From assembly GCA_903821805.1 (NCBI GenBank), contig CAIJNA010000163.1, forward strand, positions 1 through 40,251: a stretch of 40,251 nucleotides of DNA. The letters are read 5' to 3'. The number at the start of each line of letters is the position of its first letter. The first letter of the stretch is position 1. Of this stretch, positions 12,686-33,850 are shown piece by piece. The stretch is from an uncultured Campylobacterota bacterium. Its GTDB lineage: Bacteria > Campylobacterota > Campylobacteria > Campylobacterales > Arcobacteraceae. Both the position numbers and the translations under genes were made by a program. Under the pieces are notes generated by a model. The model was given only the letters and a program-made list of their open reading frames with translations. It searched no databases and was not told where the DNA came from.

Positions 12686-12702
12686 TATTTGATAAATATT
12701 GT

Positions 12703-12786: not shown

Positions 12787-12795
12787 TGATACAAT
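12787..12795 (+). promoter_or_regulatory. extended -10 promoter element for ndk
   Basis: TGaTACAAT lies about 29 nt upstream of the ndk ATG, just after the ferredoxin terminator. Confidence 0.45.
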
Positions 12796-12823
12796 CGCAA
12801 AATTTTAAAAATGGAGAAATATA

Positions 12824-13237: not shown

Positions 13238-13258
13238 TCATTAGTAGATAGAGAAAAC

Positions 13259-13642: not shown

Positions 13643-13656
13643 ACAAAGGATAAAAA

Positions 13657-15763: not shown

Positions 15764-15766
15764 ATT

Positions 15767-16201
15767 TTATCTATTTAGTTTGAAAGCACTTCTAGACTTT
15801 TCAATCTGTTTCAATTCTTCTTCTTCACTCATAAAATATCTATCAACAGTAGCTGTTGGATTTAAAAATAAAATAACATTATCAATATTTACTTGAAATA
15901 TAGAATAGTATGGAACTTGGCAAATAGAACCAAAATTTTGAGCACCAAAACCAGCTTCAAAAGTTAAATATTTATCATGTAATTGTAAACTTTCAAGTGT
16001 ATAATTTGCCAAAGTAAATAATGTGTATTTTGTAAAATTTTTCTTGATTTCATGTGGTATTTCTGGTGTAAAAGTCATTCCAGATATATTCGCAGTTAGT
16101 CCAAATTCTACATTTTTAAACACAAGAAAATCCAATAATTCTTTTAATTGTTGAGATGTTAAATCCTTATATTCTTTACTCTCTATTAAGTTAGTTATCA
16201 T
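15767..16201 (-). CDS. hypothetical protein, possibly SspB-like
   Basis: 144-aa ORF joined to pabC by an ATGA overlap. The segment LTFEAGFGAQNFGSICQVPYYSIFQV loosely resembles the SspB core (ARFGG...VP..AV..IY). This is a weak pattern match only. Confidence 0.4.
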   Translation of the reverse strand: MITNLIESKEYKDLTSQQLKELLDFLVFKNVEFGLTANISGMTFTPEIPHEIKKNFTKYTLFTLANYTLESLQLHDKYLTFEAGFGAQNFGSICQVPYYSIFQVNIDNVILFLNPTATVDRYFMSEEEELKQIEKSRSAFKLNR

Positions 16202-16782
16202 TTTTGATTCCTTGTTAGATCTATTTTAAAGTTATCTATTATATCAAAATCAATCATAGCATTTAATAATCCGATTTTGTTTGCATTGAGCAACATATCA
16301 ATATCAATATCTTCCTCTAGCAGTAATTCTTCATCAATATATCTCGCCCTTGTTGTACCATGAAGTATTGGTTTTTTTGGTGTCATCCATCTATTTTTGT
16401 ATAGAATTGCAATATTTGCAATAGAAGTATCAGTAACTAGATTATTTTTTACAATAATAATTTCATCGCAATTATCTTTTTTTTGATATAGTTTTTCAAT
16501 ATCATGCCGATCAATATATTTTTTAGAGTACTCGATTGTATCATCGAATACAACTTTAAATGATCTAATTTGTTTTTTGACATATGTGCTGTAATCAATT
16601 TGAATAATATGATTTGAATCATATTGTAACTTACATTTTGTTAGGCATTCTGATGGTGGATAGATATATTCTTCAAGATTGATATTTAGTCCAACAGTCT
16701 TAGCAATCCTTTTTTTGTGATATTCAAGATTGAAAACCTCAAAATCATCACATCTTATTGTCTCAAAGTAAATATTTGTCAT
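16198..16782 (-). CDS. pabC: aminodeoxychorismate lyase-like (class IV aminotransferase fold), short form
   Basis: 194 aa with TDTSIANIAILYKNRWMTPKKPILHGTTRARYI, matching the class IV pattern (N-I-F ... TP ... L-x-G-x-TR). Joined to pabB by an ATGA overlap. Confidence 0.7.
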   Translation of the reverse strand: MTNIYFETIRCDDFEVFNLEYHKKRIAKTVGLNINLEEYIYPPSECLTKCKLQYDSNHIIQIDYSTYVKKQIRSFKVVFDDTIEYSKKYIDRHDIEKLYQKKDNCDEIIIVKNNLVTDTSIANIAILYKNRWMTPKKPILHGTTRARYIDEELLLEEDIDIDMLLNANKIGLLNAMIDFDIIDNFKIDLTRNQK

Positions 16783-17738
16783 GGTATATAAACCTTTTCA
16801 ATCATTTCATTGTATTCATTATTGATATCACTGTCAAGTGTTATTCCACCACCACTTTTATAAATATATTGATTCTTATTGTTTGTATTATTTTTCTTTC
16901 TTTCTATAAATCTTATGAGCACTGCAGTATCCAAGCTTGTTCCGTCATATATCCCCCAAATGCCAGTGAAAAAACCACGATCATATTTTTCTATTTCATG
17001 TATAATTTCAACAGTTTTTCGTTTTGGTGTCCCAGTTATGCTTCCAGCCGGGAGTAAATTCACTAAAATATCCCCAATAGTTTCGTGCCAATTGTTAGCA
17101 AGCTCACCAGATATTTTTGAACTAACTTGGAGGAGTTTATTTTCTCCAGCCTTAATTGTTTCTACATATCTGAATTCATCAACTTTAACATTTTTAGAAA
17201 CAATATTGAGATCATTTCTCAGTAGATCAACGATCATTGTGTGTTCAGCTAATTCTTTTTGATCATTTAATATTTTTTCATGTGCATCTTCAACTTTTGA
17301 ATTTATTGTCCCTTTCATTGGGAATGTATATATTTTATTGTTTGAAATTTTAATAAATGTTTCAGGTGAAAATGATACAAATTTATTCTTGTAATATATT
17401 TTATATTTCGCGGAAGAATGCTCATAAATTTCTAAAAGTGAGTTTTTTGATTTGATATTTGTTTTTGTTGTTAAATTCAAAAGGTATGTGTTGCCTTCTT
17501 GTATTTGAGAAATTACTTTGTTAAATTTCTTTTTATAGGTTTGAAACGTTAAGTGTTTTTTTGAAATAAATATTTTATGATTTTGGTGTGTATTTTTAGA
17601 TTCATTGATAGAATATCTTATTGTTTTTGGTAGCTTGTCTAATGGAATAACATCCCAAGCTTTTAAATCATAGCTTATGCAAAAGAAGAATGGTTTTTTG
17701 GTGTTTCCAAAAGAGTTGAGAGTTGATATCAAATTCAA
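16779..17738 (-). CDS. pabB: aminodeoxychorismate synthase component I (chorismate-binding enzyme), short form
   Basis: 319 aa with the chorismate-binding C-terminal signature LLPAGSITGTPKRKTVEIIHEIEKYDRGFFTGIWGIYDG. Start is TTG at 17736-17738 with AGGTAG upstream. Confidence 0.8.
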   Translation of the reverse strand: MNLISTLNSFGNTKKPFFFCISYDLKAWDVIPLDKLPKTIRYSINESKNTHQNHKIFISKKHLTFQTYKKKFNKVISQIQEGNTYLLNLTTKTNIKSKNSLLEIYEHSSAKYKIYYKNKFVSFSPETFIKISNNKIYTFPMKGTINSKVEDAHEKILNDQKELAEHTMIVDLLRNDLNIVSKNVKVDEFRYVETIKAGENKLLQVSSKISGELANNWHETIGDILVNLLPAGSITGTPKRKTVEIIHEIEKYDRGFFTGIWGIYDGTSLDTAVLIRFIERKKNNTNNKNQYIYKSGGGITLDSDINNEYNEMIEKVYIP

Positions 17739-17959: not shown

Positions 17960-18349
17960 ATGGAACATATGGATTTTGCGCATCCTTACTTTGGAGCATT
18001 TGTAATGTTTGTTGTTACATTTGTCGCATTTACTGCAACTACTATGGCATCAAGGTTTATTAGTAGAAAGCTTGCAAGACTTGATACAGAAAAATTGAAA
18101 TGTACTATTTACGAGTGTGGACCAGAGGTAACAAAGCAGCCAAATACAATATCGGTTCAGTTTTATTTGATGGCATTATTATTTATACTTTTTGATGTAG
18201 AGATTATATTTATGTTCCCTTGGGCTGTAGATTTCAAGGTTCTTGGTATGTTTGGTTTTATTGAAATGATTTTATTTATCGTATTGCTTACAATTGGGTT
18301 TGTATATGCATGGAAAAAAGGAGCTTTAGAATGGCACAGCATGAAGTAA
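17960..18349 (+). CDS. nuoA: NADH-quinone oxidoreductase subunit A
   Basis: 129 aa with three TM helices and the YECG motif (IYECGPEV). Strong GGGGGAG RBS. First gene of the nuo cluster. Confidence 0.93.
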
Positions 18350-18840
18350 AATATTTATCAAATGGCGGTGCTCCTATAGCACTTACGACTGTCGATAAGT
18401 TAGTAAATTTTGGAAGAAGTAATTCACTTTGGCCTATGACATATGGTTTAGCATGTTGTGCTATTGAAATGATGGCAACAGGTGCTTCGAGATTTGACTT
18501 TGATAGATTTGGTACTATTTTTAGAGCAAGTCCAAGACAATCTGATGTGCTTGTTATAGCTGGAACTCTTACAAAAAAACATGCAGAGTTTTTAAGAAGA
18601 CTTTATGATCAAATGCCAGATCCTAAATGGGTAATTAGTATGGGGAGTTGTGCTAACACTGGTGGAATGTTTAATACATATGCAACTGTTCAGGGCGCAG
18701 ATAGAGTTATTCCTGTTGATATCTATCTTCCAGGATGTGCACCAAGACCTGAAACATTACAATTTGCACTTATGATGCTACAAAAGAAAATTAGAAGCCA
18801 ACCATGTAGTTTGGCGCAAAAAGCAAAAAGGTTAATCTAA
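18331..18840 (+). CDS. nuoB: NADH-quinone oxidoreductase subunit B
   Basis: N2-cluster motifs [15 protein letters not shown] and PGCAP are present. The ATG at 18331 is preferred over the track start at 18310 because AAGGAG (18318-18323) sits 7 nt upstream. Confidence 0.93.
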
Positions 18841-19661
18841 TGAGAGCTTATCAACCAAAAGACAATGTACAAAAAAAATCATATTACAACGATAGATTTT
18901 ATGTTACACCAACACTAGCAAGAAAATCAGTTTATGATGATTCAGTTTTTAGTAACGATTATTTAAGTTTAACAAAGAAAGTAACAGTAAATGATGTTTA
19001 TCTAGAACTTGATCATTTGGTTCTATGGATAAATCCTGAAGATAACATTTCAGCAATTAAGCATGCAAAAGAAATATTAGCTTATGATTTTTTAGTTGAA
19101 CTTAGTGCAATTGATTATGTGGCAACAAAAGGTGGATTTGAAATTTTTTATGAAATGTTATCAACTTCTAAAAGAAAAAGACTTAGAATTAAGACTTTTA
19201 TTAAAGAAGGAACAGCAATTGAGTCTGTGAATCCGTTATTTAGAATGGCAGACTGGAGTGAGCGTGAAATGTTCGATATGTTTGGAATAGTTGCAAATAA
19301 TCATCCATATATGAAAAGAATTCTTATGCCAGAAGATTGGCATGGGCACCCACTTTTAAAAACTTATCCACTTCATGGTGATGAGGCTGCAAGATGGTAC
19401 GAAGTCGATAAAATTTTTGGACGAGAGGCTAGAGAAACTATAGGTGAAGAGCAAAGAGATTCTGCAGCTATAGATAGATATGACACAACAAGATTCTCAA
19501 GACTTGGACACGAAGTTCCATTTGGAACTGACATTAGAGATGGTAAAGAACCAGATACCCCTGTTAGATATCAAGAAGATGGAGGAATTAAAATCTTCGG
19601 AATACCTCTTGTTACACCATTTGATGAGATAGAAACTAAAAATTTAAAAGAGAGAAGATAA
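18840..19661 (+). CDS. nuoC: NADH-quinone oxidoreductase subunit C
   Basis: 273 aa with the [11 protein letters not shown] signature. TAATG overlap with nuoB. Confidence 0.92.
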
Positions 19662-19662
19662 C

Positions 19663-20889
19663 ATGCAACAAACAAATAGATTAAAACCTTTTTTTGAAAA
19701 TATAGCATTTGACAGAGAAGACAATACTATGGTTGTAAACTTTGGTCCTCAGCATCCATCAGCACATGGACAGCTTCGACTTATTCTTGAGCTTCAAGGA
19801 GAAGAAGTTGTAAAAGCCCATCCAGACGTTGGATACCTTCATAGGGGTATGGAAAAAATGGGTGAAAACATGATTTATAACGAATTTTTGCCTACAACAG
19901 ACAGAATGGATTATATAGCAGCGACTTCAAATAATTATGGATATGCACTGGCAGTTGAAAAACTTTTAGGTATTGAGGCGCCAAGAAGAGCTGAAGTTAT
20001 AAGAACTATGTTGCTTGAAATAAATAGAATTATTTCTCACTTGTTTTGGCTTGCAACACATGCACTAGATGTTGGTGCAATGTCAGTATTTCTTTATGCA
20101 TTTAGAGAAAGAGAATTCGCGATGGATTTAATGGAAGATTATTGTGGAGCTAGACTTACTCATAGTAGCGTTAGAATAGGTGGTGTTCCATTAGATTTAC
20201 CAAAAAATTGGATTGAAGATTTAGAAAAATTTATGGTAGTTCTTGATGAGCAAATCAAAATTTATGAGGGCCTTCTAACAACAAATAGAATCTGGAGAAT
20301 GAGACTAGAAAATATTGGTGTTATTCCAACAGAAATGGCGAAGTCTTGGGGATGTACAGGATTAGTACTTAGAGGAAGTGGTGTTCAATGGGACTTAAGA
20401 AAAGAGATGCCTTACGGACTTTATCCAGAATTAGAATTTGATGTTCCGTTCTCTGATACTTGTGACAGCTATGGAAGATATAAACTTCATATGGAAGAGA
20501 TGTACCAATCTATGAGAATTTTAAAACAATTAATTCCTATGTATCACGAAAGTGAATCTAAATTAATGGCTCATGCTCCTCAGTATATTTCATCTTCAAA
20601 AGAAGAAATGATGACTCAAAATTATTCACTAATGCAACACTTTGTTCTTGTGACTCAAGGTATGAGACCACCAGTCGGAGAAGTTTATGTTGCTACAGAA
20701 TCACCAAAAGGTGAATTGGGTTATTACATTGTAAGTGATGGAAGTCCTTATCCATACAGAATGAAATTAAGAGCACCAAGCTTCTGGCATACAGGAATAT
20801 TGCAAGATCTACTTCCAGGGCATCAGCTTGCCGATGTTGTTACTATTATTGGTAACCTTAATATAGTTTTCGGCGAAATAGATAGATAA
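19663..20889 (+). CDS. nuoD: NADH-quinone oxidoreductase subunit D
   Basis: 408 aa with [11 protein letters not shown] and the C-terminal NIVFGEIDR signature. Confidence 0.95.
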
Positions 20890-20901
20890 TTAGGGGTTAA
20901 A

Positions 20902-21168
20902 ATGAAAAGATATGATTTAAGAGAACACGGAAATAGTTTTATCCCTAGACTTACTGAGCTTATGAATAACGAAATAGTTGAAGATGAGAATGGCATATTT
21001 TTATTCGAGATTGGGGATTTTTCTCCAATTCAAGAAGTTTCGGATGTAGTTAAAGCAAATAATTGGACATTAATGAATTCAATCAAATTCAATGAAGTTG
21101 ATTGGACTGTTGTTATTAAAAAAACGCAAGACCAATCTCTTATTGTAGAGACTTCTGAAGAAGAATAG
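20902..21168 (+). CDS. Cys-free 88-aa protein occupying the nuoE position
   Basis: The ORF lies between nuoD and the nuoF-position gene with a GGGG RBS. It contains no cysteine, so it cannot ligate the NuoE 2Fe-2S cluster. The position is analogous to the small non-NuoE proteins of the Campylobacter and Helicobacter nuo operons. Confidence 0.7.
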   Translation: MKRYDLREHGNSFIPRLTELMNNEIVEDENGIFLFEIGDFSPIQEVSDVVKANNWTLMNSIKFNEVDWTVVIKKTQDQSLIVETSEEE

Positions 21169-21176
21169 GAAATATT

Positions 21177-23192
21177 GTGAGCAAAGTATATTTTTCAACT
21201 TGGCAAGGAGAGATTGTAGACAATAGAGGCGCTGCATCTATTGAAGATTGGAAAGAATCATCTGCGAAATTGCCAATGGAGTATGATAAAGATAATCATA
21301 CGAAAGCGTTTGTTGGTTGGGATGGATTTGCACTTTTTACAGCTGATGTTGATGTTGTAAAATTAGCAGTTAATTATGCAAAACAATATCAAGAATATAG
21401 TGAAATGTGTGGAAGATGTGCACCTGGAAGATGGGGTGGACGAATACTTTATGATATGTTGGACAAAATCGCAAGGGGTGAAGGTGAGCATAGTGATCTT
21501 GCGCATCTGAATGAAATAAGTGACACTATGATGGTAACTAGCAAGTGTGAAATTGGGAAAACTGTTCCGGTTCCAATCTTGCAAATGATTAAATATTTTA
21601 ACAATGAATTTAAAAGACTAATTGATACAAAAACAGCTTCACCTTGGTATAACATAGATGATGAAAGATATATTGCAAATATAACTGCACCATGTACTGA
21701 CATGTGTCCTGCACATATTGATATTCCTGCATATATTGAGGGCGTAAGAGATCTGGATTTTAGTGCAACATTGAGTGCAACTAGAGATCATATGCCATTA
21801 GCTCATACATGTGGAAGAGTTTGTCCTCATCCATGTGAAACTGCTTGCAGAAGATCAAATCTCGATGAGCCTATATCTATTATGGAGCTTAAGCGAATAG
21901 GTGCTGATTATGAAACAGATCATAAGCTTGATTGGATTCATCCCTCAAAACCTCAAAAACCTAGAAATGATGGTAAAAAAGTTGCTATTATAGGAGCTGG
22001 ACCAGCTGGACTTACAGCAGCTTACTATTTGGGATTACAAGGAATTAATGTAACAATTTTTGAAGAACTACCAGTTCTTGGTGGTGAAGTTACTGTTGGT
22101 GTTCCAGAATATCGTATGCCATTTGATAAGTATAACGAAGACATCAAGTTGATAACTGAATTAGAAACAGTTGAGGTTATAGCTAACCATAGAGTTACAG
22201 CTGAAAGATTAAAAGAGATTGAAGCAGACTATGATGCTACACTTCTTGGATTTGGCGCTAGACTTTCAAAAGCAATTAGATGTGAAAATGAAAATCCAAA
22301 TCATGAAGGCTATTGGGGAGCTATCGCAATGCTTGATAAAGTTAATCTTTGGACAAAATTTCAAATTGGCAGCCCAGCTTCGAATGAATTAAAAGACAAA
22401 ACTGTTGTTTGTGTTGGTGGTGGATTTACTTCAATGGATGTTGTAAGATGTAGTATTAGAGAAGGTGCTAAAAGAGTTGTAATGCTTTATCGAAGAGATG
22501 AAAAAACAATTATTAAAAACACTACACTTGAGGAATATACTGAAGCTGTTGAAGAAGGTGTTGAGTTCGTTTTTCATAGCGCGATCGATACAATTAGGGA
22601 TGAAAATGGTGTAATTAAATCACTATTAGTAAATCAATACGAGCTTGTTCCAGATCCAAATGGAGGAAGAGCTGAGCTTGTAAAAAGAGATGATGGGGAT
22701 TTTGAAATTGAATGCGACTATTTAATTCCAGCAGTTTCTCAAAGTTCAGATTTGCAGATTCTTCCAAAAGAATGGGAGTTAACAATGACATCATGGGGAA
22801 CTTTACAGACTAATGGTAAAGACTTCATGACAAGTAGACCTGGACTGTTTGCAGCAGGTGATTGTGAATACGGACCTATGACTATTGTTAATGCGGTTGG
22901 ACAAGCAAGACGAGCAGCATCTGTTATCAGTAGATATATTTACGATGGTAAAGTGACTCTAACTGATGAAGAGATCATGGAAGACCATATGAATAAGTTA
23001 AAAGTGTATAACAAAAAAGAAAAAATCACAGGTTGGATGGCAGGACTTCCAAGGGAAGTTAGTGAAAAAGCACCAACTGAAATTAGAAAACACAATAATA
23101 TGGAAGTAAATTTTGGTTTCACTGCAGAAGAAGCGCAAGCAGAAGCCGAAAGATGCATGAGATGTTATTACCTTGGGATGGTGGCCATATGA
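21177..23192 (+). CDS. fusion protein: NuoF C-terminal FeS-domain remnant + GltD/NfnB-like NAD(P)H-dependent FeS flavoprotein (occupies nuoF position)
   Basis: GTG start at 21177 with AGGA 6 nt upstream. Residues ~60-145 align to the NuoF N3 domain (SEMCGRCAPGRWGG ... SKCEIGKTVPVPILQMIKYF). Residues ~170-230 carry the GltD-type FeS motifs CTDMCP and CGRVCPHPCETAC. There is a GAGPAG FAD Rossmann (KVAIIGAGPAGLTAAYYL), a second dinucleotide fold (VVCVGGGFTSMDVVRC ... VVMLYRR) and GLFAAGDC. The stop overlaps the next ATG (ATGA). Confidence 0.85.
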   Translation: MSKVYFSTWQGEIVDNRGAASIEDWKESSAKLPMEYDKDNHTKAFVGWDGFALFTADVDVVKLAVNYAKQYQEYSEMCGRCAPGRWGGRILYDMLDKIARGEGEHSDLAHLNEISDTMMVTSKCEIGKTVPVPILQMIKYFNNEFKRLIDTKTASPWYNIDDERYIANITAPCTDMCPAHIDIPAYIEGVRDLDFSATLSATRDHMPLAHTCGRVCPHPCETACRRSNLDEPISIMELKRIGADYETDHKLDWIHPSKPQKPRNDGKKVAIIGAGPAGLTAAYYLGLQGINVTIFEELPVLGGEVTVGVPEYRMPFDKYNEDIKLITELETVEVIANHRVTAERLKEIEADYDATLLGFGARLSKAIRCENENPNHEGYWGAIAMLDKVNLWTKFQIGSPASNELKDKTVVCVGGGFTSMDVVRCSIREGAKRVVMLYRRDEKTIIKNTTLEEYTEAVEEGVEFVFHSAIDTIRDENGVIKSLLVNQYELVPDPNGGRAELVKRDDGDFEIECDYLIPAVSQSSDLQILPKEWELTMTSWGTLQTNGKDFMTSRPGLFAAGDCEYGPMTIVNAVGQARRAASVISRYIYDGKVTLTDEEIMEDHMNKLKVYNKKEKITGWMAGLPREVSEKAPTEIRKHNNMEVNFGFTAEEAQAEAERCMRCYYLGMVAI

Positions 23193-25447
23193 GCGAAAAA
23201 ATAGAACACAGAGGAAAACCAATAAGTATTACAATTGATGGTAAAGTTTGTGATGGAGTTTATGGTGAAACAATCTTACAAATAGCCAGAAAAAACGATA
23301 TCTATATCCCAACAATGTGTTATTTACCAAAAGTTTCTCCGATTGCAAGCTGTAGAATGTGTGCAGTTAAAGTTGTAGGGGTTGATGGCAATATTTTAAG
23401 TTGTCAAGAAAAAGCTGTAAATGGCGCGGTTGTTACAACTAATAATGATGAATTAACTCATCACAGAACAAATATTATGAAGTTATATGATGTTAATCAT
23501 CCTTTGCAATGTGGTGTTTGTGATAAAAGTGGTGAGTGTGATTTACAAAATAAAACATTAGAATTTAAAGTAGATAGTCAAGAGTTTGCAATTAGAGACT
23601 TGAACCGTAAACAAAAAAAATGGGGCGTTTTGGGATACGATCCAAGTCTTTGTATTATGTGTGAAAAATGTGTACATACTTGCAATGAGATAATAGGAAC
23701 AGCAGCACTTTATATAAAACCAGGTGGGTATAAATCTACAATTGATATTAAAATGAGCAGATGTGAACAATGCGGAGATTGTATATCCGTATGCCCTGTT
23801 GGAGCATTGGTTTCAAATCCGTATAAATATACATCAAATGCATGGGAAAGCACCCAGATTCCAGCAACATGTAGCCATTGCAGTAGCGCATGCGCTCTAA
23901 TTTATGATGTGAAAAATAATGAAAAAATCATGAGAGTAAAAAATGATTTTGAATTTTCTTCACTTTGTGGAGCTGGAAGATTTGGATTTGAATATGAAAA
24001 TAAAAACACAAATAAATCAAAAGAAGAGTTTGAAACAGCACTTAATGCAATAAAAACTTGTGAAACAATTAGATTTAATTCTTACATTACCAATGAAGAA
24101 GCAATGATTTTGCAAACATTGAAAGAAAAATTAGGAATAAAGCTTGTCAATGAAGATGCTTATAATTATCAATCATTCCTAAGAACGTATGCTTTGGCAG
24201 CAGGAACGAATCTTTATAGTGCAAGCAACAGAACTATTCAAAATAGTGATGCCATTATCATGATTGGTACAAGAATAAGCAGGGATAATCCTGTTGTGAA
24301 ATATAGTGTAAATATAGCAACAAAGAAAAAAAGAGCTGAATTTATATATATGCATCCGATTGATGATATAGCTTTAGCCAATAAATATACACAATTTGTT
24401 AAATATGAGGTTGGCAGTGAAGAGGCTGTTTTGGCAATGCTTTGTAAATATTTTGTATTAAATGCGCCACAAGAAATAACTTCATTTATAGATGATCTTG
24501 ATATTGGGTATTTAAGCGGTGAGTCAAGTGTTGGCGAAGAGGAAATTGAAGCCATTAAAACTAGATTTATTAGAAGAAAAGAAAAATCAATAATTATTGG
24601 AAGTGATATTTATGGTCACCCAAATGCTACGAATATTGCGAAAATGGTTGCAATTCTTGAGCAGTATGGAAACTTTAAAGTTCTTTTAATTCCAACATTT
24701 ACAAATACTTTAGGTGTTAGTTTAATATGTGATCTTGATAAGGTTGCAACTGGAAAAGTTCTTGGATACAACGAACTAGGAGATTTTACGTTTTCAAATG
24801 ATGGTAATGGTGATTTTAATATACCAGCATTAAATCAACAAGAAGGTACTTTTACTTCTTTGGACATGCAGGTCGTAAATACAAATGCAGCTTTACCATT
24901 TGATGGACCTTGCCTAAATAATTTTGCAAATGAAATTTTAGACATACATCAAAAACATACTATAAATTATACTAGTTTATTGGGCTTAATTAAAGAATTC
25001 AAGCCTATTGCATTTGATGATTTTAAAAATGGATTTGACAAGTACGGTAATGATTTAAGAGGTTACGAATTGAATAGATTTAATACAACAACTTCAAATC
25101 AATTACCAGATGATATAACACCTCTTGATACGTTTAATGGAAGTGTTATCTATAGATGTGAGCCGCTTCATCAATTCAATAAAGCAACTGGAAAATCGCT
25201 ACTTCTTCAGTCTGATACACACTTAAGAGGAAGCGCTTCTTTTGCAACTGCTGCAAAGATTAAAGCTGGTGATAAAGTAAATATAATTTACGGAAATCAA
25301 ATAAAAACAAAAATGTTTAAAATAGATACAACAATAAAAGGTACTGTTGCACTTTATCCTACGTTTGACGATGGATTAAGTGATGATTTGATACCTTTGG
25401 GATATAGATTTAAAAGAGTAAAAATAGAAAAGGTTGCTGAATTATGA
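23189..25447 (+). CDS. nuoG: NADH-quinone oxidoreductase subunit G paralog 1 (retains N7-like Cys motif)
   Basis: The ATG at 23189 (MSEKIEHRG...) is preferred over 23153 because it forms an ATGA overlap with the upstream stop. Motifs present: the 2Fe-2S pattern CX10CX2CX13C, N5 (HPLQCGVCDKSGEC), CIMCEKCVHTC, CEQCGDCISVCP, and CSHCSSAC-X24-C (N7-like). There is also a molybdopterin-oxidoreductase-like C-terminal part. Confidence 0.85.
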   Translation: MSEKIEHRGKPISITIDGKVCDGVYGETILQIARKNDIYIPTMCYLPKVSPIASCRMCAVKVVGVDGNILSCQEKAVNGAVVTTNNDELTHHRTNIMKLYDVNHPLQCGVCDKSGECDLQNKTLEFKVDSQEFAIRDLNRKQKKWGVLGYDPSLCIMCEKCVHTCNEIIGTAALYIKPGGYKSTIDIKMSRCEQCGDCISVCPVGALVSNPYKYTSNAWESTQIPATCSHCSSACALIYDVKNNEKIMRVKNDFEFSSLCGAGRFGFEYENKNTNKSKEEFETALNAIKTCETIRFNSYITNEEAMILQTLKEKLGIKLVNEDAYNYQSFLRTYALAAGTNLYSASNRTIQNSDAIIMIGTRISRDNPVVKYSVNIATKKKRAEFIYMHPIDDIALANKYTQFVKYEVGSEEAVLAMLCKYFVLNAPQEITSFIDDLDIGYLSGESSVGEEEIEAIKTRFIRRKEKSIIIGSDIYGHPNATNIAKMVAILEQYGNFKVLLIPTFTNTLGVSLICDLDKVATGKVLGYNELGDFTFSNDGNGDFNIPALNQQEGTFTSLDMQVVNTNAALPFDGPCLNNFANEILDIHQKHTINYTSLLGLIKEFKPIAFDDFKNGFDKYGNDLRGYELNRFNTTTSNQLPDDITPLDTFNGSVIYRCEPLHQFNKATGKSLLLQSDTHLRGSASFATAAKIKAGDKVNIIYGNQIKTKMFKIDTTIKGTVALYPTFDDGLSDDLIPLGYRFKRVKIEKVAEL

Positions 25448-27885
25448 GTGATTTGATTACTGTAAAAATTGACGGCAAAGACTGTCAAGCTAAAGATGGA
25501 GAATATGTATTAAATGTTGCACGAGCAAATGACATATTTATACCTGCAATTTGCTATCTAACAAGATGCTCGCCAACTTTAGCATGTAGATTATGCCTTG
25601 TGGAATCAGGTGGAAAACAAATTTACGCATGTAACGCTAAAGTAAAAGATGGCATGGAAGTTACAACATCTACTGAAAATATTGAAGTTGAAAGACGAGC
25701 AATTATGGAAGTTTATGATGTAAATCATCCTTTGCAATGTGGTGTTTGTGATCAAAGTGGAGAGTGTGAACTTCAAAACTATACACTTTATATGGGTGTT
25801 GATAAACAAAACTATGCAGTAAAAGATGTTTTAAGAGATACTAAAGATTGGGGTGTTATGAGTTATGACCCGGGTCTTTGTATTGTTTGTGAAAAATGTG
25901 TAACAGTTTGCAAAGATATGATTGGTTCAAATGCATTGAGTACAACTGCTAGAGGTAGTGAAGCTCTTGATAAAAGTTATAAAGACAACATGCCTAAAGA
26001 TGCTTATTCAATGTGGAATAAACTAAATAAAAATCTTATTAGTTTTGACGATGAAAGTTGTATTGATTGTGGTGAATGTATTGCTGTATGTCCAGTTGGA
26101 GCCCTTGTAAGTACAGATTTTAAATACACCACAAATGCATGGGAGCTTGTAAAGGTTCCAGCTGCAAATCCTTTCAGTTCTGATTGTTCATTACTTTATT
26201 ATGAAGTAAAACATAAAAGCATCAAAGATGAAACAAATAAAATCTATAGAGTTACAAATGATTCTCACTATACAAGCTTAAGTGGTGCGGCTAGATTTGG
26301 ATTTGATTATTCAAATGAAGTTGCATCAAAAGATGAGCATGCCTTTAAACAAACTATAGAAGCATTTAAAAGCAGCCAAACAATAATTTTTAATAGTTTT
26401 ATTACAAATGAAGAAGCTTTTATATTGCAAAAAATGAAAAATGAATTAGGATTTAAACTTGTCAATAATGATGCATTTGCATACAAAAGATTCCTATCTA
26501 ATTTCTCTTCAGTATCAGGAAGTACTCTTTATAGTGGAGATTTAAATAAAGTTCATAATAGTAATTTTGTTGTTTCTGTAGGTAGTTATTTCAAATCGGA
26601 TGCACCATCTGTTAGATATGCATTTAATAATTCAATTTCTTTAAATAAAGGTGCTGGACTCTATTTTCATCCACTTGGTGATAGTACTGTTGAAGGATTT
26701 GGCAAAAAAGGAAAAACAATCGAGACAATTTTCCATGCGCCACTATCTGAAGAAGCAATTTTATATCTTATTCTTGATGTATTTGGAAGAAATCTCCCAA
26801 GTGAAATCTCTTCGTATTTAAGTAGTTTAAAATTACAAAAAACAAGAACAATTACAGAGTTAATAAAAGAACAAGTTACTGAAATGGTAAAAGATGAAGA
26901 AACTGGAGAAGAAAAAGAAATAACAAAAGAGGTTTCAAAAAAAGTATCAAAAGAAGAAACTTATTCATCTACTAAATTACTAGAGATGATAGGTTCTGAT
27001 GATACTTTGCTTGAAACAATATCTGCAATGCTTGAGAAAAAAGATACTTTTACATTGATTGTAGGTGAGGATCTGTATCAACATGAAAAAGCAGAAAATT
27101 TAGCAAAATTGTGTGGATTAATTGAAAAATATACATCTTTTGATGTTGTTATTATTCCTAGCTCAACAAATACTTTGGGAGTTAGTTTACTTTGTGATTT
27201 AGATGAAGCTCCAATCGGAAAAACTATTGGTTATAATATGAAAGCTGATTTTGAAATTAGTGCACTTGGTGATGGAATGCTTGATATGCCTACGCTAAAT
27301 CAGCAAGAAGGAACTTTTGTAACAATTAACAAAAGAGTTGTGCCTACAAATGCAGCAATCAAATATCACGGTTACGAATTAAATGATATTGCAAATGAAC
27401 TTTTAGCTAAAAAAACAAAATATACTGTCGACCATACTTCTAATTTATTAAATAAAATTGCATTTGAAAATCTTGAAAATCATTTTACGAACTCAATGGA
27501 TGAAAGAAGAGGATATTTATTAGATGCACAAAGTATAGCTTCAAATGATATGGTTGAAAATGCAAGTGAATTGAAAATGGAAGGAACTATTATTTATAAT
27601 GCTAATCCTATAAATCAATTCAATGAATTTACAAGCAAAGCAAAACAGTTACAACAAGAGATAACAGCATTATATGTTTCTAGTGAGTATTTAACTAAAC
27701 TTGAATTAAATAATGGAGATTTGGTAAACATATCAACTTCAAATGGATCAGTTCAGCTTCCAGTAATGATTGATAATCAACTTGTTGGTGAAATTTCTTA
27801 TGTTCCAACATTTGAAAAAAATAGCGAAACTAAAAACTTATTTGCAAATTATAGATTTATAAACGCAAATTTAACAAAGGTGTAA
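25444..27885 (+). CDS. nuoG: NADH-quinone oxidoreductase subunit G paralog 2 (N7 motif lost)
   Basis: 813 aa, joined to paralog 1 by an ATGA overlap. It has the same N-terminal cluster motifs (2Fe-2S, HPLQCGVCDQSGEC, CIVCEKCVTVC, CIDCGECIAVCP). The N7 position reads PFSSDCS ... SLSGAARF, with only one Cys left. A Lys/Glu-rich insertion lies around EETGEEKEITKEVSKKVSKEE. Confidence 0.85.
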   Translation: MSDLITVKIDGKDCQAKDGEYVLNVARANDIFIPAICYLTRCSPTLACRLCLVESGGKQIYACNAKVKDGMEVTTSTENIEVERRAIMEVYDVNHPLQCGVCDQSGECELQNYTLYMGVDKQNYAVKDVLRDTKDWGVMSYDPGLCIVCEKCVTVCKDMIGSNALSTTARGSEALDKSYKDNMPKDAYSMWNKLNKNLISFDDESCIDCGECIAVCPVGALVSTDFKYTTNAWELVKVPAANPFSSDCSLLYYEVKHKSIKDETNKIYRVTNDSHYTSLSGAARFGFDYSNEVASKDEHAFKQTIEAFKSSQTIIFNSFITNEEAFILQKMKNELGFKLVNNDAFAYKRFLSNFSSVSGSTLYSGDLNKVHNSNFVVSVGSYFKSDAPSVRYAFNNSISLNKGAGLYFHPLGDSTVEGFGKKGKTIETIFHAPLSEEAILYLILDVFGRNLPSEISSYLSSLKLQKTRTITELIKEQVTEMVKDEETGEEKEITKEVSKKVSKEETYSSTKLLEMIGSDDTLLETISAMLEKKDTFTLIVGEDLYQHEKAENLAKLCGLIEKYTSFDVVIIPSSTNTLGVSLLCDLDEAPIGKTIGYNMKADFEISALGDGMLDMPTLNQQEGTFVTINKRVVPTNAAIKYHGYELNDIANELLAKKTKYTVDHTSNLLNKIAFENLENHFTNSMDERRGYLLDAQSIASNDMVENASELKMEGTIIYNANPINQFNEFTSKAKQLQQEITALYVSSEYLTKLELNNGDLVNISTSNGSVQLPVMIDNQLVGEISYVPTFEKNSETKNLFANYRFINANLTKV

Positions 27886-27888
27886 AAG

Positions 27889-28851
27889 ATGGATAATGAT
27901 ATATTAATGACTATTTTAAAAGTTGTTGTAGTTCTTTTAGTATTTTCTGCTCTAGCAGGTTTTACGACTTATATTGAAAGAAAAGTTTTAGCATTTATGC
28001 AAAGACGACTTGGGCCTGTTCATGTTGGTCCGTTTGGTTTATTACAAATCGCAGCTGATGGTATTAAGCTATTTACAAAAGAAGATTTCGTTCCGCAAAA
28101 TGCAAATAGAATTATATTTATGGTTGCTCCTATTATAACAGCTGCAACAGCTTTTATAGCTATGAGTGCTGTTCCTTTTATTCCAGGAGTTATTATTTCT
28201 GATGTAAATGTTGGGATACTATTTGTTCTTGGTGTAATGGCAACAGGACTTTACGGACCACTTTTAGCAGGTATGGCCCAAGCAAACAAATGGGGACTTT
28301 TGGGTGGCGCTAGAACAGCTATTCAACTTTTATCATATGAGGTTGTAACTGGTCTTTCTATCCTTGCACCTATTATGATGATTGGTAGTTTGAGCTTGAT
28401 TGATATTAATAATTATCAAGCTGGAGGCATTCAAAATTGGTTAATTTGGACACAACCTATTGCATTTTTCTTATTTTTGATTGCTGGATTTGCAGAAACA
28501 AATAGAACTCCTTTTGACCTTTTAGAGCATGAAGCTGAAGTTGTTAGTGGATACGCAACTGAATATTCAGGAATGAGATGGGGTATGTTCTTTATTGGTG
28601 AATATGCAAACTTATTTACTATTTCATTCTTGGTTGCATTAATTTTCCTTGGAGGGTTTAATGATTTAGGATTCATTCCTGGGGCAATTGCAATTCTCTT
28701 GAAAGTAATGTTTTTAATTTTTGTATTCCTTTGGACAAGAGCTTCTTGGCCTCACGTAAGACCTGATCAATTGATGTGGCTTTGCTGGAAAGTATTAATG
28801 CCAATTGGATTATTAAACATAGTAATCACTGGCATAGTGATGATGGTATAA
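27889..28851 (+). CDS. nuoH: NADH-quinone oxidoreductase subunit H
   Basis: 320-aa polytopic membrane protein with ERKVLAFMQRRLGP and TNRTPFDLLEHEAEVVSGY signatures. Confidence 0.95.
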   Translation: MDNDILMTILKVVVVLLVFSALAGFTTYIERKVLAFMQRRLGPVHVGPFGLLQIAADGIKLFTKEDFVPQNANRIIFMVAPIITAATAFIAMSAVPFIPGVIISDVNVGILFVLGVMATGLYGPLLAGMAQANKWGLLGGARTAIQLLSYEVVTGLSILAPIMMIGSLSLIDINNYQAGGIQNWLIWTQPIAFFLFLIAGFAETNRTPFDLLEHEAEVVSGYATEYSGMRWGMFFIGEYANLFTISFLVALIFLGGFNDLGFIPGAIAILLKVMFLIFVFLWTRASWPHVRPDQLMWLCWKVLMPIGLLNIVITGIVMMV

Positions 28852-28861
28852 GGATAATAGT

Positions 28862-29497
28862 ATGAGTTATGAAGATTTAAAAAAACATACAAACGAAAGA
28901 AGCACTGGAACCAATGGTTACGTGCAGGTGGAAATTGAAGAATATCCAAAAACAGGATGGGAAGCTTTTAAACAAGCAATGGGAAGAACATTAAGTATGG
29001 AATTGTTTAAAGGCCTTGGTATTACATTTAAAATAATGAACCAAGCATTATTTAAAAACCAAATGCATACAGTTCAATATCCAATTGAACAAATGCCAAT
29101 TAGCCCAAGATATAGAGCCGTTCATAAACTTTTAGGACTTCTAGAGAGTGGAAATAATAGATGTATCGGATGTGGACTTTGTGAAAAAATTTGTATTTCA
29201 AACTGTATCAGAATGGAAACAAAAATTGATGAAAAATCTAGAAAAGAAGTTATGGAATATTCTATCAATCTTGGAAGATGTATTTTCTGTGGATATTGTG
29301 CTGAGGTTTGTCCTGAGCTTGCGATTGTTCATGGCGGAAGATATGAGAATGCAAGTGAGCAAAGAGCACACTTTGTATTAAAAGATGACTTGCTTACGCC
29401 ATTTGATGCTATTGCACAACAAATTGAATACGATGGATTTGGTGCAATTAGTCCAGATGCTGATCAAAAAATCAAAAAAACACCATTAGCGTATTAA
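28862..29497 (+). CDS. nuoI: NADH-quinone oxidoreductase subunit I
   Basis: 211 aa with two 4Fe-4S motifs, CIGCGLCEKIC and CIFCGYCAEVCP. It has an N-terminal extension relative to E. coli NuoI. Confidence 0.93.
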   Translation: MSYEDLKKHTNERSTGTNGYVQVEIEEYPKTGWEAFKQAMGRTLSMELFKGLGITFKIMNQALFKNQMHTVQYPIEQMPISPRYRAVHKLLGLLESGNNRCIGCGLCEKICISNCIRMETKIDEKSRKEVMEYSINLGRCIFCGYCAEVCPELAIVHGGRYENASEQRAHFVLKDDLLTPFDAIAQQIEYDGFGAISPDADQKIKKTPLAY

Positions 29498-29506
29498 GGA
29501 AAAATA

Positions 29507-30079
29507 ATGTTTGAAGTAGTAGCTTTTTATCTCTTTGCGGTTTTAACAATCGCAATGTTTACAATTACAGTTGTGACTAAGAATGCACTTTATGCCCTTA
29601 GTTCTTTGGCTGCAGGTATGATTTTCATATCAGCATTTTTCTTTTTATTAAATGCAGACTTTTTAGGGGTGGTTCAAATAGTTGTTTATACGGGAGCTGT
29701 TATGGCTCTTTATGCATTTGGTATGATGTTTTTTGATTCAATTAGTGATGTTGAAGAAAAAATTTCAAATCCGAGGCTCGCATTTTTCTTAACAGGGATT
29801 GTTGCTCTTTTGGTTGTGCTTATTTTATTGGCACCAATCGTAAGTTCAAATATTATTGCTTCATACCCAATTCACAATGAGTATAGCAACACAGCTGATG
29901 TAGGACTTATATTATTTACGAAATTTTTAGTTCCTTTTGAAGTTGCAGCAGTTATGCTACTTGTTGCAATGATTGGCGGAATTATTTTAGCTGGTAAAAA
30001 AATGGATACGGATGCAAGTTCTTTGGAAGCAGAGCAAGATCATCACCATTGCGACTTTAATACAAAGGATATCAAATGA
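29507..30079 (+). CDS. nuoJ: NADH-quinone oxidoreductase subunit J
   Basis: 190-aa hydrophobic protein with the VVYTGAVMAL and PFEVAAVMLLVAMIG patterns. Operon position supports the call. Confidence 0.9.
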   Translation: MFEVVAFYLFAVLTIAMFTITVVTKNALYALSSLAAGMIFISAFFFLLNADFLGVVQIVVYTGAVMALYAFGMMFFDSISDVEEKISNPRLAFFLTGIVALLVVLILLAPIVSSNIIASYPIHNEYSNTADVGLILFTKFLVPFEVAAVMLLVAMIGGIILAGKKMDTDASSLEAEQDHHHCDFNTKDIK

Positions 30080-30381
30080 TGGTAGCTTTAAATGATTATT
30101 TAATACTCAGTACAATAATTTTTATGATTGGGTTATTTGGAGTAGTAAAAAGAAAAAACCTATTAATGTTGTTTTTTTCTACAGAAATTATGCTTAATGC
30201 AGTAAATATTGGTTTTGTAGCAATTGGAAAATTCCATCAAGATTTAAGTGGACAAATGTTCGCGTTCTTTATTATTGCTATAGCTGCAAGTGAAGTTGCA
30301 ATAGGACTTGGACTGCTTATTTTATGGTTTAAGAGAAAAAATACAATCGATCTAGATTCGCTACAACAAATGAGAGGTTAG
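30076..30381 (+). CDS. nuoK: NADH-quinone oxidoreductase subunit K
   Basis: 101 aa with three TM helices and a conserved Glu in TEIMLNAVN. ATGA overlap with nuoJ. Confidence 0.92.
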   Translation: MMVALNDYLILSTIIFMIGLFGVVKRKNLLMLFFSTEIMLNAVNIGFVAIGKFHQDLSGQMFAFFIIAIAASEVAIGLGLLILWFKRKNTIDLDSLQQMRG

Positions 30382-30383
30382 GA

Positions 30384-32315
30384 ATGGAAAATTATTTATA
30401 TTTAGCATTATTTGCTCCACTTGTTGGGGCACTATTTGCAACATTATTTTCAAATAGTAAAAAAGCACAAATTGTAGGAATAATAACATCATTATTATTG
30501 GCAACATCAATGGTTGCTTCACTTATACTGCTTGCACATGTTTACACAACTGAGCAAATTATTCATGTAAATATGATGGATTGGATATCAATTGGACATG
30601 TTTATATTCCGTTCGGTTTTATAGTTGATCAGGTTAGCGTAACTATGATGGTTGTAGTTACTATAGTTTCAACAATGGTTCATATTCATTCAAATGGATA
30701 TATGGATCATGATAAATCATTTAATAGATTTTTTGCATGGCTATCTGCATTCGTTTTCTCTATGTTAATACTTGTTATGAGTGATAACTTTGCCGGATTA
30801 TTTATAGGTTGGGAAGGTGTTGGTCTTTGCTCTTGGGGATTAATTGGTTTCTGGTACCATAAGGAAGATATTGCTCATAGTAAAGATCTTACGAAATCTC
30901 CATTTTCAACATTGTCACCATATTCTGCAGTTTCACCTTCATGGGCAGCTAATGAAGCATTTATAATGAATAGAGTTGCGGATCTTGGAATGCTAATCGG
31001 AATGTTCTTAATCTTCTGGAATCTTGGAACTTTACAATATGATGAAGTTTTTGCAAACATTGGTATGCTTAGTCATGAATTAGTTGTTGCTATCGCTATA
31101 TTCTTATTTATAGGTGCAATGGGAAAATCAGCTCAATTTCCTTTTAATACTTGGCTTGCAAATGCAATGGAAGGACCAACTCCAGTTTCTGCACTTATTC
31201 ACGCAGCAACAATGGTTACAGCTGGGGTTTACTTGGTTGTTAGAGCAAATGAAATATTTACTATTGTTCCTGAAGTTGGTTATTTCATAGCTGGACTTGG
31301 AGCATTTGTAGCCATAGGGGCTGCTTCAATGGCATTGGTTGCAACAAATATGAAGAAAATTATTGCATACTCAACATTATCTCAACTTGGATATATGTTT
31401 GTAGCAGCTGGACTTGGAGCTTATTGGGTTGCGTTATTTCACCTTGCTACTCATGCATTCTTTAAATCAGTATTATTCTTAGGTGCAGGAAATGTAATGC
31501 ATGCAATGAATGATGAAATTAATATTAAAAATATGGGTGGACTTAGAAAGCATATGCCATACACAGCATTAATTATGACAGTTGCATCTCTTGCTTTAGC
31601 TGGTATTTTCCCATTGGCAGGATTCTTTTCAAAAGATATGATACTAGAGTCAGCTTTTGCAAATGAAGCTTACATATTATGGACTGTTTTATGGATAACA
31701 GCTGGTTTGACAGCATTTTATTCATTTAGACTTGTGATGTATGTATTTTATGGAAAAGAGAATTACCATAATTTGGGTTATCACCCACATGAGAGTTATG
31801 GTTATGTTATAGCAGCTATGACTCCATTAGCTATTTTAGCAGTTATTGCTGGATGGTTTGAAGAAGAATTTGTTGAATTTATTACTATGTCTCTTCCAGT
31901 TTGGGAAGGTCACCTTGAGCATAATACACATTATATGCTTATTGGAGTTACTAGTGCTATAGCAATTATTGGTGTAGCATTTGCAGTGTTTAAATATCTA
32001 AAAAATGGAACATATTTTAGTTCAAGTATGCATAAAAGATTTTGCTATAAAGTTCTTGCAAATCAATATTATCTTCCTCATTTGTGGGAAAAAGTAGTTG
32101 TTAAGCCTTATTACAAATTGTCTGTGTATTGCTGGAAAAAAGTTGACATGAAAATTATTGATGCAATAGTAGATGGTATTGCAAAAATTATTTATACAGG
32201 TGGAGCAGAAGGTAGAGCAATTCAAACAGGAAATCTATCTAGTGCATTAAAATTAATGGTTGGAGGAGTATTTATTTTACTGACTCTCATATTATTTTTT
32301 GGTTTAACAAAGTAA
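30384..32315 (+). CDS. nuoL: NADH-quinone oxidoreductase subunit L
   Basis: 643-aa antiporter-like subunit with GWEGVGLCSW and GKSAQFPFNTWLANAMEGPTPVSALIHAATMV signatures and a long C-terminal part. Confidence 0.95.
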   Translation: MENYLYLALFAPLVGALFATLFSNSKKAQIVGIITSLLLATSMVASLILLAHVYTTEQIIHVNMMDWISIGHVYIPFGFIVDQVSVTMMVVVTIVSTMVHIHSNGYMDHDKSFNRFFAWLSAFVFSMLILVMSDNFAGLFIGWEGVGLCSWGLIGFWYHKEDIAHSKDLTKSPFSTLSPYSAVSPSWAANEAFIMNRVADLGMLIGMFLIFWNLGTLQYDEVFANIGMLSHELVVAIAIFLFIGAMGKSAQFPFNTWLANAMEGPTPVSALIHAATMVTAGVYLVVRANEIFTIVPEVGYFIAGLGAFVAIGAASMALVATNMKKIIAYSTLSQLGYMFVAAGLGAYWVALFHLATHAFFKSVLFLGAGNVMHAMNDEINIKNMGGLRKHMPYTALIMTVASLALAGIFPLAGFFSKDMILESAFANEAYILWTVLWITAGLTAFYSFRLVMYVFYGKENYHNLGYHPHESYGYVIAAMTPLAILAVIAGWFEEEFVEFITMSLPVWEGHLEHNTHYMLIGVTSAIAIIGVAFAVFKYLKNGTYFSSSMHKRFCYKVLANQYYLPHLWEKVVVKPYYKLSVYCWKKVDMKIIDAIVDGIAKIIYTGGAEGRAIQTGNLSSALKLMVGGVFILLTLILFFGLTK

Positions 32316-32324
32316 GGGGAATAG

Positions 32325-33848: not shown

Positions 33849-33850
33849 TT

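Follow-up and report, generated by a model that had tools for sequence, protein, structure and literature searches.

Two NuoG paralogs in tandem in the complex I operon of an uncultured Arcobacteraceae bacterium, and their relation to the single NuoG of Helicobacter and Campylobacter

We analysed a stretch of 40,251 nucleotides from an uncultured Campylobacterota bacterium of the family Arcobacteraceae (contig CAIJNA010000163.1 of assembly GCA_903821805.1, positions 1 to 40,251; "the window" below means this whole stretch). Its G+C content is about 31% and its closest relatives are other uncultured Arcobacteraceae, with protein identities of 80-82%. The window contains a complete nuo operon on the + strand (17960-35344), in the order nuoA-B-C-D-Esub-Fsub-G1-G2-nuoH-...-nuoN. 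Our subject is the tandem pair G1 and G2, two NuoG paralogs that are both encoded inside the operon between the nuoE/F position and nuoH, where a NuoG of any type is expected, together with the two proteins that stand in for NuoE and NuoF. The genes in question are:

20902..21168, + strand: Esub (NuoE-substitute), 88 aa; Pfam PF16514, PDB 2LXR
21177..23192, + strand: Fsub (NuoF-substitute), 671 aa; Pfam PF10589, PF14691, PF07992
23189..25447, + strand: G1, NuoG paralog 1, 752 aa; NCBIfam NF006305, G1 clade in the tree
25444..27885, + strand: G2, NuoG paralog 2, 813 aa; NF006305 from end to end, profile scores, shared insertions
27889..29497, + strand: nuoH and nuoI, immediately 3' of G2; open reading frames, gene order kept in about 150 loci

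NuoI bears the clusters N6a and N6b, which are the acceptor of the canonical NuoG chain.

A sequence-only reading of this DNA had described two co-translated NuoG paralogs of 752 and 813 aa in tandem. The open reading frames (ORFs) confirm it and show two intact, translationally coupled genes, and the two proteins have an identity of 37% across their full length. Stop and start codons overlap as ATGA at both junctions, that is, between Fsub and G1 (23189-23192) and between G1 and G2 (25444-25447). The ORF table also contains an alternative upstream ATG for G1 at 23153; we favour the 752-aa start because the N-terminus is conserved in the orthologs and an identical 752-aa protein (P0271) is found in the database. 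The dN/dS ratios against the nearest relatives are 0.09-0.18 for G1 and 0.13-0.23 for G2 (with dS near saturation); both genes are under purifying selection and neither is a pseudogene.

Both copies carry the four N1b cysteines, the N5 motif and the N4 ligands that are characteristic of NuoG. With the family model of the Campylobacterota NuoG (NF006305 / PRK08493, cut-off 591 bits), G2 scores 1089.8 in one stretch and G1 822.5 in three. Neither reaches the cut-off of the canonical NuoG model TIGR01973 (470 bits; G1 216.9, G2 153.5). In the formate dehydrogenase alpha family with a Mo/W-bisPGD cofactor (TIGR01591, cut-off 666 bits) G2 scores 18.7 and G1 is not listed, and the Pfam Molybdopterin domain is found marginally and in G1 only (25.9 bits, cut-off 24). 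We have therefore rejected the idea that G1 is a working catalytic subunit of the formate dehydrogenase type. In AlphaFold2 models of the monomers the bodies have a predicted local distance difference test score (pLDDT) of about 90 and the iron-sulphur (Fe-S) halves one below 50; a Foldseek search with these models finds the folds of the alpha subunit of NAD-dependent formate dehydrogenase (FdsA) and of complex I NuoG, with template modelling scores of about 0.5. Like the canonical NuoG/Nqo3 of E. coli, T. thermophilus and Aquifex aeolicus, both copies combine N1b, N4, N5 and an optional N7 with a molybdopterin-oxidoreductase-like body that has no recognisable cofactor site, and the Aquifex protein (7q5y) is the best solved match of both. 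On the other hand, the canonical enzymes have a single NuoG that binds NuoE and NuoF, whereas the copies in the window fall below the TIGR01973 cut-off and have a second [4Fe-4S] site in the ferredoxin domain.

The cluster motifs, with their conservation in a census of 150 G1 and 163 G2 orthologs, are located as follows:

23318..23404, + strand: N1b [2Fe-2S] site of G1 (C44, C55, C58, C72), invariant in 150/150 G1 orthologs
23498..23539, + strand: N5 site of G1 (H104-x3-C108-x2-C111-x5-C117), invariant in 150/150 G1 orthologs
23651..23794, + strand: 8-Cys ferredoxin domain of G1 (CX2CX2CX3C at C155-C165 and C192-C202), N4 cysteines invariant
23870..23968, + strand: N7-type site of G1 (C228-x2-C231-x3-C235-x24-C260), kept in 143-150/150 G1 orthologs
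25879..26091, + strand: 8-Cys ferredoxin domain of G2, C146-C216 (motifs C146-C156 and C206-C216), all eight positions in 163/163 G2 orthologs
26167..26283, + strand: degenerate N7 site of G2 (N242, S245, S249, S280, with a stray C248), from the alignment to G1

The N1b and N5 motifs and the two CX2CX2CX3C motifs that the sequence-only reading had reported for both proteins could thus be assigned to residues in each of them; in G2, the N1b ligands are C37, C48, C51 and C63, and the N5 motif HX3CX2CX5C spans H95-C108. In the ferredoxin domain of G1, C155, C158, C161 and C202 are the N4 ligands, and C165, C192, C195 and C198 those of the extra [4Fe-4S] cluster. The ligands of N1b, N5 and N4 are invariant in all sequences of the census. 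The second [4Fe-4S] site of the ferredoxin domain is present in 163/163 G2 orthologs, while in G1 its four cysteines have been lost together in 41 of the 150 orthologs, all of the Sulfurovum clade, which leaves the canonical N4-only pattern. For the proteins of the window, the motifs predict five clusters in G1 and four in G2, in addition to those of Fsub.

The same reading had located an N7 motif in G1 alone and one remaining cysteine at the corresponding place in G2. Both observations are correct, to the exact coordinates for the motif: G1 has the pattern of an N7-bearing NuoG, CxxCxxxC-(x~27)-C, with a spacer of x24, and G2 has the stray C248 instead. We could not, however, support the view that N7 is the key difference between the paralogs. 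All four N7 cysteines are kept in 46/163 G2 orthologs, namely in Sulfurovum, Nitratifractor, Hydrogenimonas, Sulfurimonas and also in H. pylori, and we have for this reason rejected N7 as a functional discriminator of G1 and G2. Judging from the sequences, the loss of N7 in G2 is a trait specific to the Arcobacteraceae, and the paralogs are therefore not defined by N7. This cluster lies off the electron pathway in E. coli and T. thermophilus and has a role in stability (PMC4453560). Since both the 8-Cys domain and N7 are found in outgroup proteins, they represent the ancestral state.

Two further observations concern these motifs. G2 has an extra cysteine within the N1b region (Cys42, 25567-25569, in CYLTRCSPTLAC), which is found in 162/163 G2 orthologs; G1 has Val, Thr or Leu there. 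A database protein of 1405 aa (P0152) consists of two complete NuoG/FdhA-like units that are naturally fused head to tail, with 2Fe-2S, N5, 8-Cys and N7-type motifs in each unit, and is 33% identical to G1 aa 14-388.

What does set G2 apart from G1 are two insertions:

25912..26058, + strand: G2-specific insertion between the two ferredoxin Cys motifs, motif MPKDAYSMWNK; in all G2 orthologs including the H. pylori NuoG
26830..26973, + strand: Lys/Glu-rich insertion of G2, aa ~463-510, motif DEETGEEKE; in all G2 orthologs

The first, which the sequence-only reading had not listed, makes the spacer between the ferredoxin Cys motifs 49 aa long in G2 compared with 26 aa in the G1 of the window (26-31 aa across G1). 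The second had been noticed at nt 26880-26960, and this interval falls inside the insertion as delimited here; its region has a median length of 81 aa in G2 and 36 aa in G1. AlphaFold2 models it as one long beta-hairpin that projects from the body (strands 463-483 and 490-510, pLDDT ~57-80), a shape that would suit an arm for clasping a partner. Some NuoG proteins of the G2 type in Campylobacter and Helicobacter are as long as 930-1107 aa (locus L240 at 3917-7237; proteins P0130, P0163 and P0165). They have low-complexity expansions rich in Ser, Ala, Gly and Glu at the site of the Lys/Glu-rich insertion and near the C-terminus.

We asked which of the two copies corresponds to the single NuoG of Campylobacter and Helicobacter, a question that the sequence-only reading had proposed to settle by a phylogeny. 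Profiles of G1 and G2 were trained on two-copy operons only, with Helicobacter excluded. The G2 profile gave a higher score than the G1 profile to each of the 68 single NuoGs and each of the 50 Campylobacter NuoGs (for example, 709 vs 633 for the H. pylori NuoG and 933 vs 662 for that of C. gracilis). Furthermore, the H. pylori protein carries both G2-specific insertions, and in neighbour-joining trees the single NuoGs cluster with G2, with G1 and G2 together forming one clade against 12 outgroup NuoG/FdhA-like proteins (100/100). By these sequence criteria the single NuoG of Campylobacter and Helicobacter is orthologous to G2. Taken with the NF006305 pattern, the profile scores, insertions and trees indicate that the duplication arose within the phylum. 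As the ortholog of the only Fe-S-bearing NuoG in operons of the H. pylori type, G2 would be the copy that contacts NuoI and NuoCD.

Next, we looked at how the four genes occur together. We fetched 296 Campylobacterota loci and classified their ORFs against the proteins of the window; the following counts refer to the 150 loci that span nuoD to nuoH in the first three scans. The long form, Esub-Fsub-G1(full)-G2, is present in 86 of the 150. There is no Fsub in 63, of which 62 retain a G1 fragment only and one has no G1 at all. This group is made up of 60 loci with Esub, a short ORF of 200-300 aa and G2; two Sulfurovum loci with a 447-aa C-terminal G1 fragment, in which a gene similar to ferredoxin-NADP reductase (FNR) and thioredoxin reductase (TrxR) on the opposite strand replaces Fsub; and one Sulfurovum locus (L204) with an FNR-like gene, from which G1 is wholly gone. 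In the remaining locus (L047), Fsub is followed by a single G1/G2 chimera. Without exception, then, a locus has either both Fsub and the G1 Fe-S half or neither of them. Esub is kept in every operon type. All 47 complete Campylobacter loci have the form with the short ORF.

Two of these unusual arrangements deserve a description of their own. The FNR/TrxR-like gene of Sulfurovum encodes about 335 aa on the minus strand inside the nuo operon (L190 6451-7467, L204 6532-7533, both on the - strand, and L197) and occupies the place of Fsub and the G1 Fe-S half. The chimera lies on a contig of a metagenome-assembled genome (L047, 2712-4976), with Fsub on one side and nuoH on the other. It resembles G1 as far as about aa 670 and G2 in the last ~80 aa, and is either a recombinant gene or an artefact of the assembly. 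We do not accept it as proof that G1 can replace G2, since its C-terminal part is G2-like.

The short ORFs in the reduced operons are of the HP1265 type: they encode 220-330 aa and lack every Fe-S site. Their profile scores derive them from G1 and not from G2. The G1 profile outscores the G2 profile for 68 of 68 short ORFs (median 200 vs 73 bits), for 56/56 complete ORFs of the Campylobacter set and for 109/109 Campylobacter database proteins. In H. pylori, the ORF that occupies the HP1265 position matches G1 with an E-value of 1e-18. The Campylobacter sample comprised the C. gracilis group, C. fetus, C. ureolyticus and C. blaseri. The relics correspond to positions ~353-512 and ~640-758 of the G1 profile, so that the N-terminal 350 residues with all Fe-S sites and an internal block of about 130 aa are missing. 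In the window, the corresponding parts of G1 are:

24224..24697, + strand: G1 aa ~346-503, Rossmann-like part of the molybdopterin-like body, first relic segment ("NuoY"/HP1265-type); BLASTP and hidden Markov model (HMM), 68+56+109 ORFs
25085..25438, + strand: G1 aa ~633-750, C-terminal barrel, second relic segment; relic match to G1 HMM positions ~640-758

The window itself has no Fe-S-free ORF of 220-330 aa between the HP1264-type gene and nuoG; the full-length G1 occupies this place. Since the small ORFs match segments of the G1 profile, G1 of the window is their full-length homolog and not a member of the group. In the databases they are called "hypothetical protein", "NADH dehydrogenase" or "subunit F"; one record of C. 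blaseri reads "chain G-like protein", so that at least one annotator saw the resemblance to NuoG.

Both forms of the operon occur within Helicobacter (L189 and L200 vs H. pylori), the Arcobacteraceae, Sulfurimonas (L155 vs L157), Nitratifractor and Sulfurovum, and in a tree of 158 columns, which is weak, the relics group with the G1 of their own lineage. Together, these two observations point to repeated truncation or loss. That a relic has been kept beside G2 in every reduced operon but one (L204) suggests that the G1 body has a role alongside G2.

What could the full G1 be connected to? Esub is a homolog of H. pylori HP1264 (Pfam PF16514, E = 2e-30; PDB 2LXR, E = 4e-16), a small protein with an IF3-like fold that is reported to bind flavin mononucleotide (PMC6269979). 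Fsub is a fusion of the C-terminal N3-type domain of NuoF (aa 66-147, PF10589) with an NfnB/GltD-like domain for flavin adenine dinucleotide (FAD) and NAD(P)H that has two [4Fe-4S] clusters, and its best PDB matches are the GltD-like parts of the StnC/NfnA type and NfnB (9bov_A, 8oh5_C, 9n5u_A and 5vj7_A). In 152 orthologs the N3-like site has three invariant cysteines only (C78, C81 and C124; CxxCxxG and not CxxCxxC), and a C-terminal CxxC (C660, C663) is invariant as well. From the sequence, this CxxC might be the missing N3 ligand or might complete a cluster of the GltD type.

To compare the evolution of these proteins, we regressed the pairwise distances in 51 non-redundant two-copy operons on the mean of NuoB, NuoD and NuoH. 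The residual correlation between G1 and Fsub is the highest of the matrix (0.58, Mantel p = 0.0005); the values are 0.40 for Esub and Fsub and 0.12 for G2 and Fsub. With NuoI, the correlation is 0.30 for G2 and 0.21 for G1. In a jackknife, the difference between G1 and G2 in their correlation with Fsub stayed between 0.37 and 0.52. In this exploratory analysis, G1 thus appears to co-evolve with Fsub and G2 with NuoI.

The tandem NuoG pair is a real and conserved feature, but it is usual for this lineage and has been published before. In a 2019 preprint on Sulfurimonas denitrificans (bioRxiv 10.1101/717884), Weerakoon and Olson (2008) are credited with noting the non-canonical NuoE/F and two NuoG in chemoautotrophic Campylobacteria. 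The preprint reports that the composition is conserved in Sulfurimonas and Sulfurovum, that the two S. denitrificans copies are 36% identical and have similar expression levels, that the shorter one lacks aa 175-204 and aa 466-532 of the longer one, and that the NuoF-substitute is NfnB-like; it proposes reverse electron transport with bifurcation and leaves the roles of the two copies open (bioRxiv 10.1101/717884). The two missing regions are the two G2 insertions of the window. Suden_1822, Suden_1823 and Suden_1824 resemble the window in gene set, gene order and the NfnB-like Fsub, in the identity of the NuoG copies (~36-37%) and in the same two regions being absent from the shorter copy (the ferredoxin spacer and ~65 aa). 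Unlike in Sulfurimonas, where G2 keeps N7, the long copy of this uncultured Arcobacteraceae bacterium has lost the N7 Cys motif. The sequence-only reading had allowed that both copies might prove to be ordinary, already characterised subunits of the lineage. Of these two parts only the first holds, as the duplication, its expression and the two missing regions had been described for S. denitrificans. We found no paper on a two-NuoG complex later than this preprint, no Campylobacterota complex I among the PDB sequences and no structural paper on one. Compared with the earlier work, our sequence comparisons of about 300 loci add the orthology of G2, the co-occurrence of G1 and Fsub, the origin of the relics from G1, the lineage-bound loss of N7 and the co-evolution pattern.

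The sequence-only reading had offered three explanations for two co-translated copies: alternative heads, a stacked Fe-S wire that reaches the GltD-like protein, or a moonlighting copy. We consider it somewhat more probable than the opposite that G2 sits in the canonical NuoG position and that G1 is a second, stacked Fe-S module which tethers an NAD(P)H module. The stacked wire is favoured by the co-occurrence of Fsub and G1, by their residual co-evolution being the strongest and by G2 being the ortholog of the single NuoG. The conserved gene order with its two ATGA junctions, the purifying selection on both genes, the origin of the short ORFs from G1, the similar expression of both copies in S. 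denitrificans and the FNR/TrxR-like gene that takes the place of Fsub and the G1 Fe-S half in Sulfurovum also speak for it. Esub, Fsub, G1 and G2 would then be the "long" form of the electron-input module of Campylobacterota complex I. G2 would pass electrons via N4 and N5 to N6a of NuoI, and the invariance of its extra [4Fe-4S] cluster fits what would be expected of an entry point. G1, a duplicate that arose in the lineage, would lie on top of G2, anchored to G2 and/or Esub by its molybdopterin-like body, with its N-terminal Fe-S chain (N1b, N4, the extra [4Fe-4S] and N5) binding the NuoF-N3-like domain of Fsub. Two NuoG chains coupled in series would in this way form a wire between the NfnB/GltD-like FAD/NAD(P)H site and the quinone site. 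We infer the stacking, the order of the clusters from G1 to G2 and the direction of electron flow from the comparisons above; the wire would probably be bidirectional, serving either the oxidation of NAD(P)H or a reduction of NAD(P)+, and perhaps of ferredoxin or flavodoxin, that is driven by the proton-motive force.

The same arrangement may explain the reduced operons. On loss of Fsub, the Fe-S half of G1 would have been lost and its body kept as a small subunit (of the HP1265 type, at the position of Cj1574c), and the reduced enzymes would draw electrons from soluble flavodoxin. In C. jejuni, flavodoxin input has been ascribed to Cj1574c, probably together with Cj1575c (PMC4178425). The flavodoxin-dependent complex I of C. 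jejuni and H. pylori (Cj1575c/HP1264 and Cj1574c/HP1265) resembles the window in that Esub is a homolog of HP1264 and G2 an ortholog of its NuoG, and its small HP1265-type ORF derives from G1. It lacks Fsub and all G1 Fe-S clusters, whereas the window has a full second NuoG and the flavoprotein, which implies an input linked to pyridine nucleotides that is absent in these two species. The wider proposal, which we put forward tentatively and hold to have a little under an even chance, is that complex I of free-living Campylobacterota has two NuoGs stacked in series, with G1 tethering an NfnB-like NADPH flavoprotein, and that the HP1265-type subunit (at the Cj1574c position) is the cluster-less remnant of the G1 body, a docking platform that was left when soluble flavodoxin replaced the wired NADPH module.

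Several points weigh against this interpretation. With only three invariant cysteines at the N3-like site of Fsub, a cluster that bridges Fsub and G1 cannot be taken for granted. Since the G1 of the Sulfurovum clade lacks the extra cluster, the route from G1 to G2 either is not identical everywhere or runs via N5 and N1b. Shared rate shifts could produce the signal in the co-evolution analysis. The bootstrap values of the G1 and G2 clades are only 33-59/100, with long Helicobacter branches, so that the orthology rests on the profile scores and the shared insertions. For Cj1574c, the link is drawn from gene position and from Campylobacter species other than C. jejuni itself. Finally, we found no structure, complexome or activity data for a two-NuoG complex in the PDB sequences or the literature.

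Among the other explanations, one that we regard as unlikely is that G1 and Fsub, perhaps with Esub, form a separate soluble NADPH:ferredoxin or NADPH:flavodoxin oxidoreductase of the Nfn/Stn type, which is co-transcribed with the nuo genes and feeds complex I via a soluble carrier, so that only G2 would be a subunit. The best solved relatives of Fsub are indeed subunits of soluble complexes of the Stn/Nfn type with GltD-like and NuoG-like modules (8oh5_C, 9bov_A, 9n5u_A). As known systems, StnABC (the Sporomusa-type Nfn), NfnABC and FdsABG share with the window a GltD/NfnB-like NADPH module, NuoF-like and NuoG/FdhA-like Fe-S chains and a cluster series of the N4-extra-N7 type. A free-standing FNR-like gene stands at the place of Fsub and the G1 Fe-S half in the Sulfurovum variants, and the complex I of C. 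jejuni uses soluble flavodoxin (PMC4178425). The known systems differ in being soluble enzymes, while the module of the window is encoded inside the operon of a membrane complex; the GltD module of StnC is inserted by fusion into the NuoG-like chain itself, and that of the window is joined to a NuoF N3-like domain. Against a separate soluble enzyme, the genes are flanked on both sides by other nuo genes and their stop and start codons overlap, Esub is kept in all forms, and a relic of the G1 body between Esub and G2 in all Fsub-less operons except L204 would be hard to explain if G1 had never been in contact with the complex.

Still less likely, in our opinion, is bifurcation or confurcation in a doubled NuoG module, in which the reverse flow from menaquinol is split to NAD(P)+ at Fsub and to ferredoxin at one NuoG, with N7 joined via the extra cluster. 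It refines the stacked arrangement and does not exclude it. This is the model of the S. denitrificans preprint (bioRxiv 10.1101/717884), and it agrees with the NfnB-like nature of Fsub, the full N4-extra-N7 series of G1 in the window and the presence of the long form in Sulfurimonas, Sulfurovum, Nitratifractor and Hydrogenimonas, which are autotrophs with the reductive tricarboxylic acid (rTCA) cycle. On the other hand, conservation does not extend to the N7 branch as a whole, as the Sulfurovum G1 lacks the connecting extra cluster and the Arcobacteraceae G2 lacks N7, and the long form is also found in heterotrophic Arcobacteraceae and some Helicobacter.

The least likely explanation is that of alternative heads, in which G1 and G2 compete for one docking site and give two populations of complex I, one fed with NAD(P)H via Fsub and G1 and the other with flavodoxin or ferredoxin via G2: the paralogs do have the complete NuoG architecture in common, down to the N5 site that lies towards NuoI in known structures, and the chimeric locus has one mostly G1-like NuoG followed by nuoH, but the G2-like end of that protein means that it does not prove docking of G1 alone, cluster-less G1 relics stand alongside G2 in about 170 reduced operons, and G1 and G2 are translationally coupled, are never found as alternatives, and differ in that G1 co-evolves with Fsub and not with NuoI.

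If the stacked arrangement is correct, this would be the first complex I in which a core subunit is duplicated within the same assembly, and the arrangement would provide a structural rationale for the acceptance of flavodoxin by the enzymes of H. pylori and C. jejuni. The electron-input side matters twice, namely for this flavodoxin-dependent enzyme and for the proposed route to NADPH and reduced ferredoxin for the rTCA cycle in sulfur- and hydrogen-oxidising autotrophs. The comparative pattern yields a concrete, testable architecture, with G2 at the NuoI interface, G1 and the flavoprotein as a removable unit, and the HP1265-type ORF as a G1 relic.

Around the operon, we saw no signs of mobile elements in the flanks, and no Rfam family matched anywhere in the window. 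The flanks (1-17738 and 35462-40226) contain ordinary chromosomal genes: a heavy-metal P-type ATPase, pyrG (CTP synthase), tsf (EF-Ts), pyrB (aspartate carbamoyltransferase), plsX and fabH, as well as a chorismate-binding enzyme, glmS and an MBOAT acyltransferase. Among the fetched loci, several records of metagenome-assembled genomes with nuo operons of the Arcobacteraceae type or similar to those of Sulfurovum (L083, L130, L004 and L233) carry the labels Desulfosporosinus sp., Candidatus Paceibacteria, Helicobacter pylori PMSS1 or Helicobacter cetorum, which are probably binning or labelling errors.

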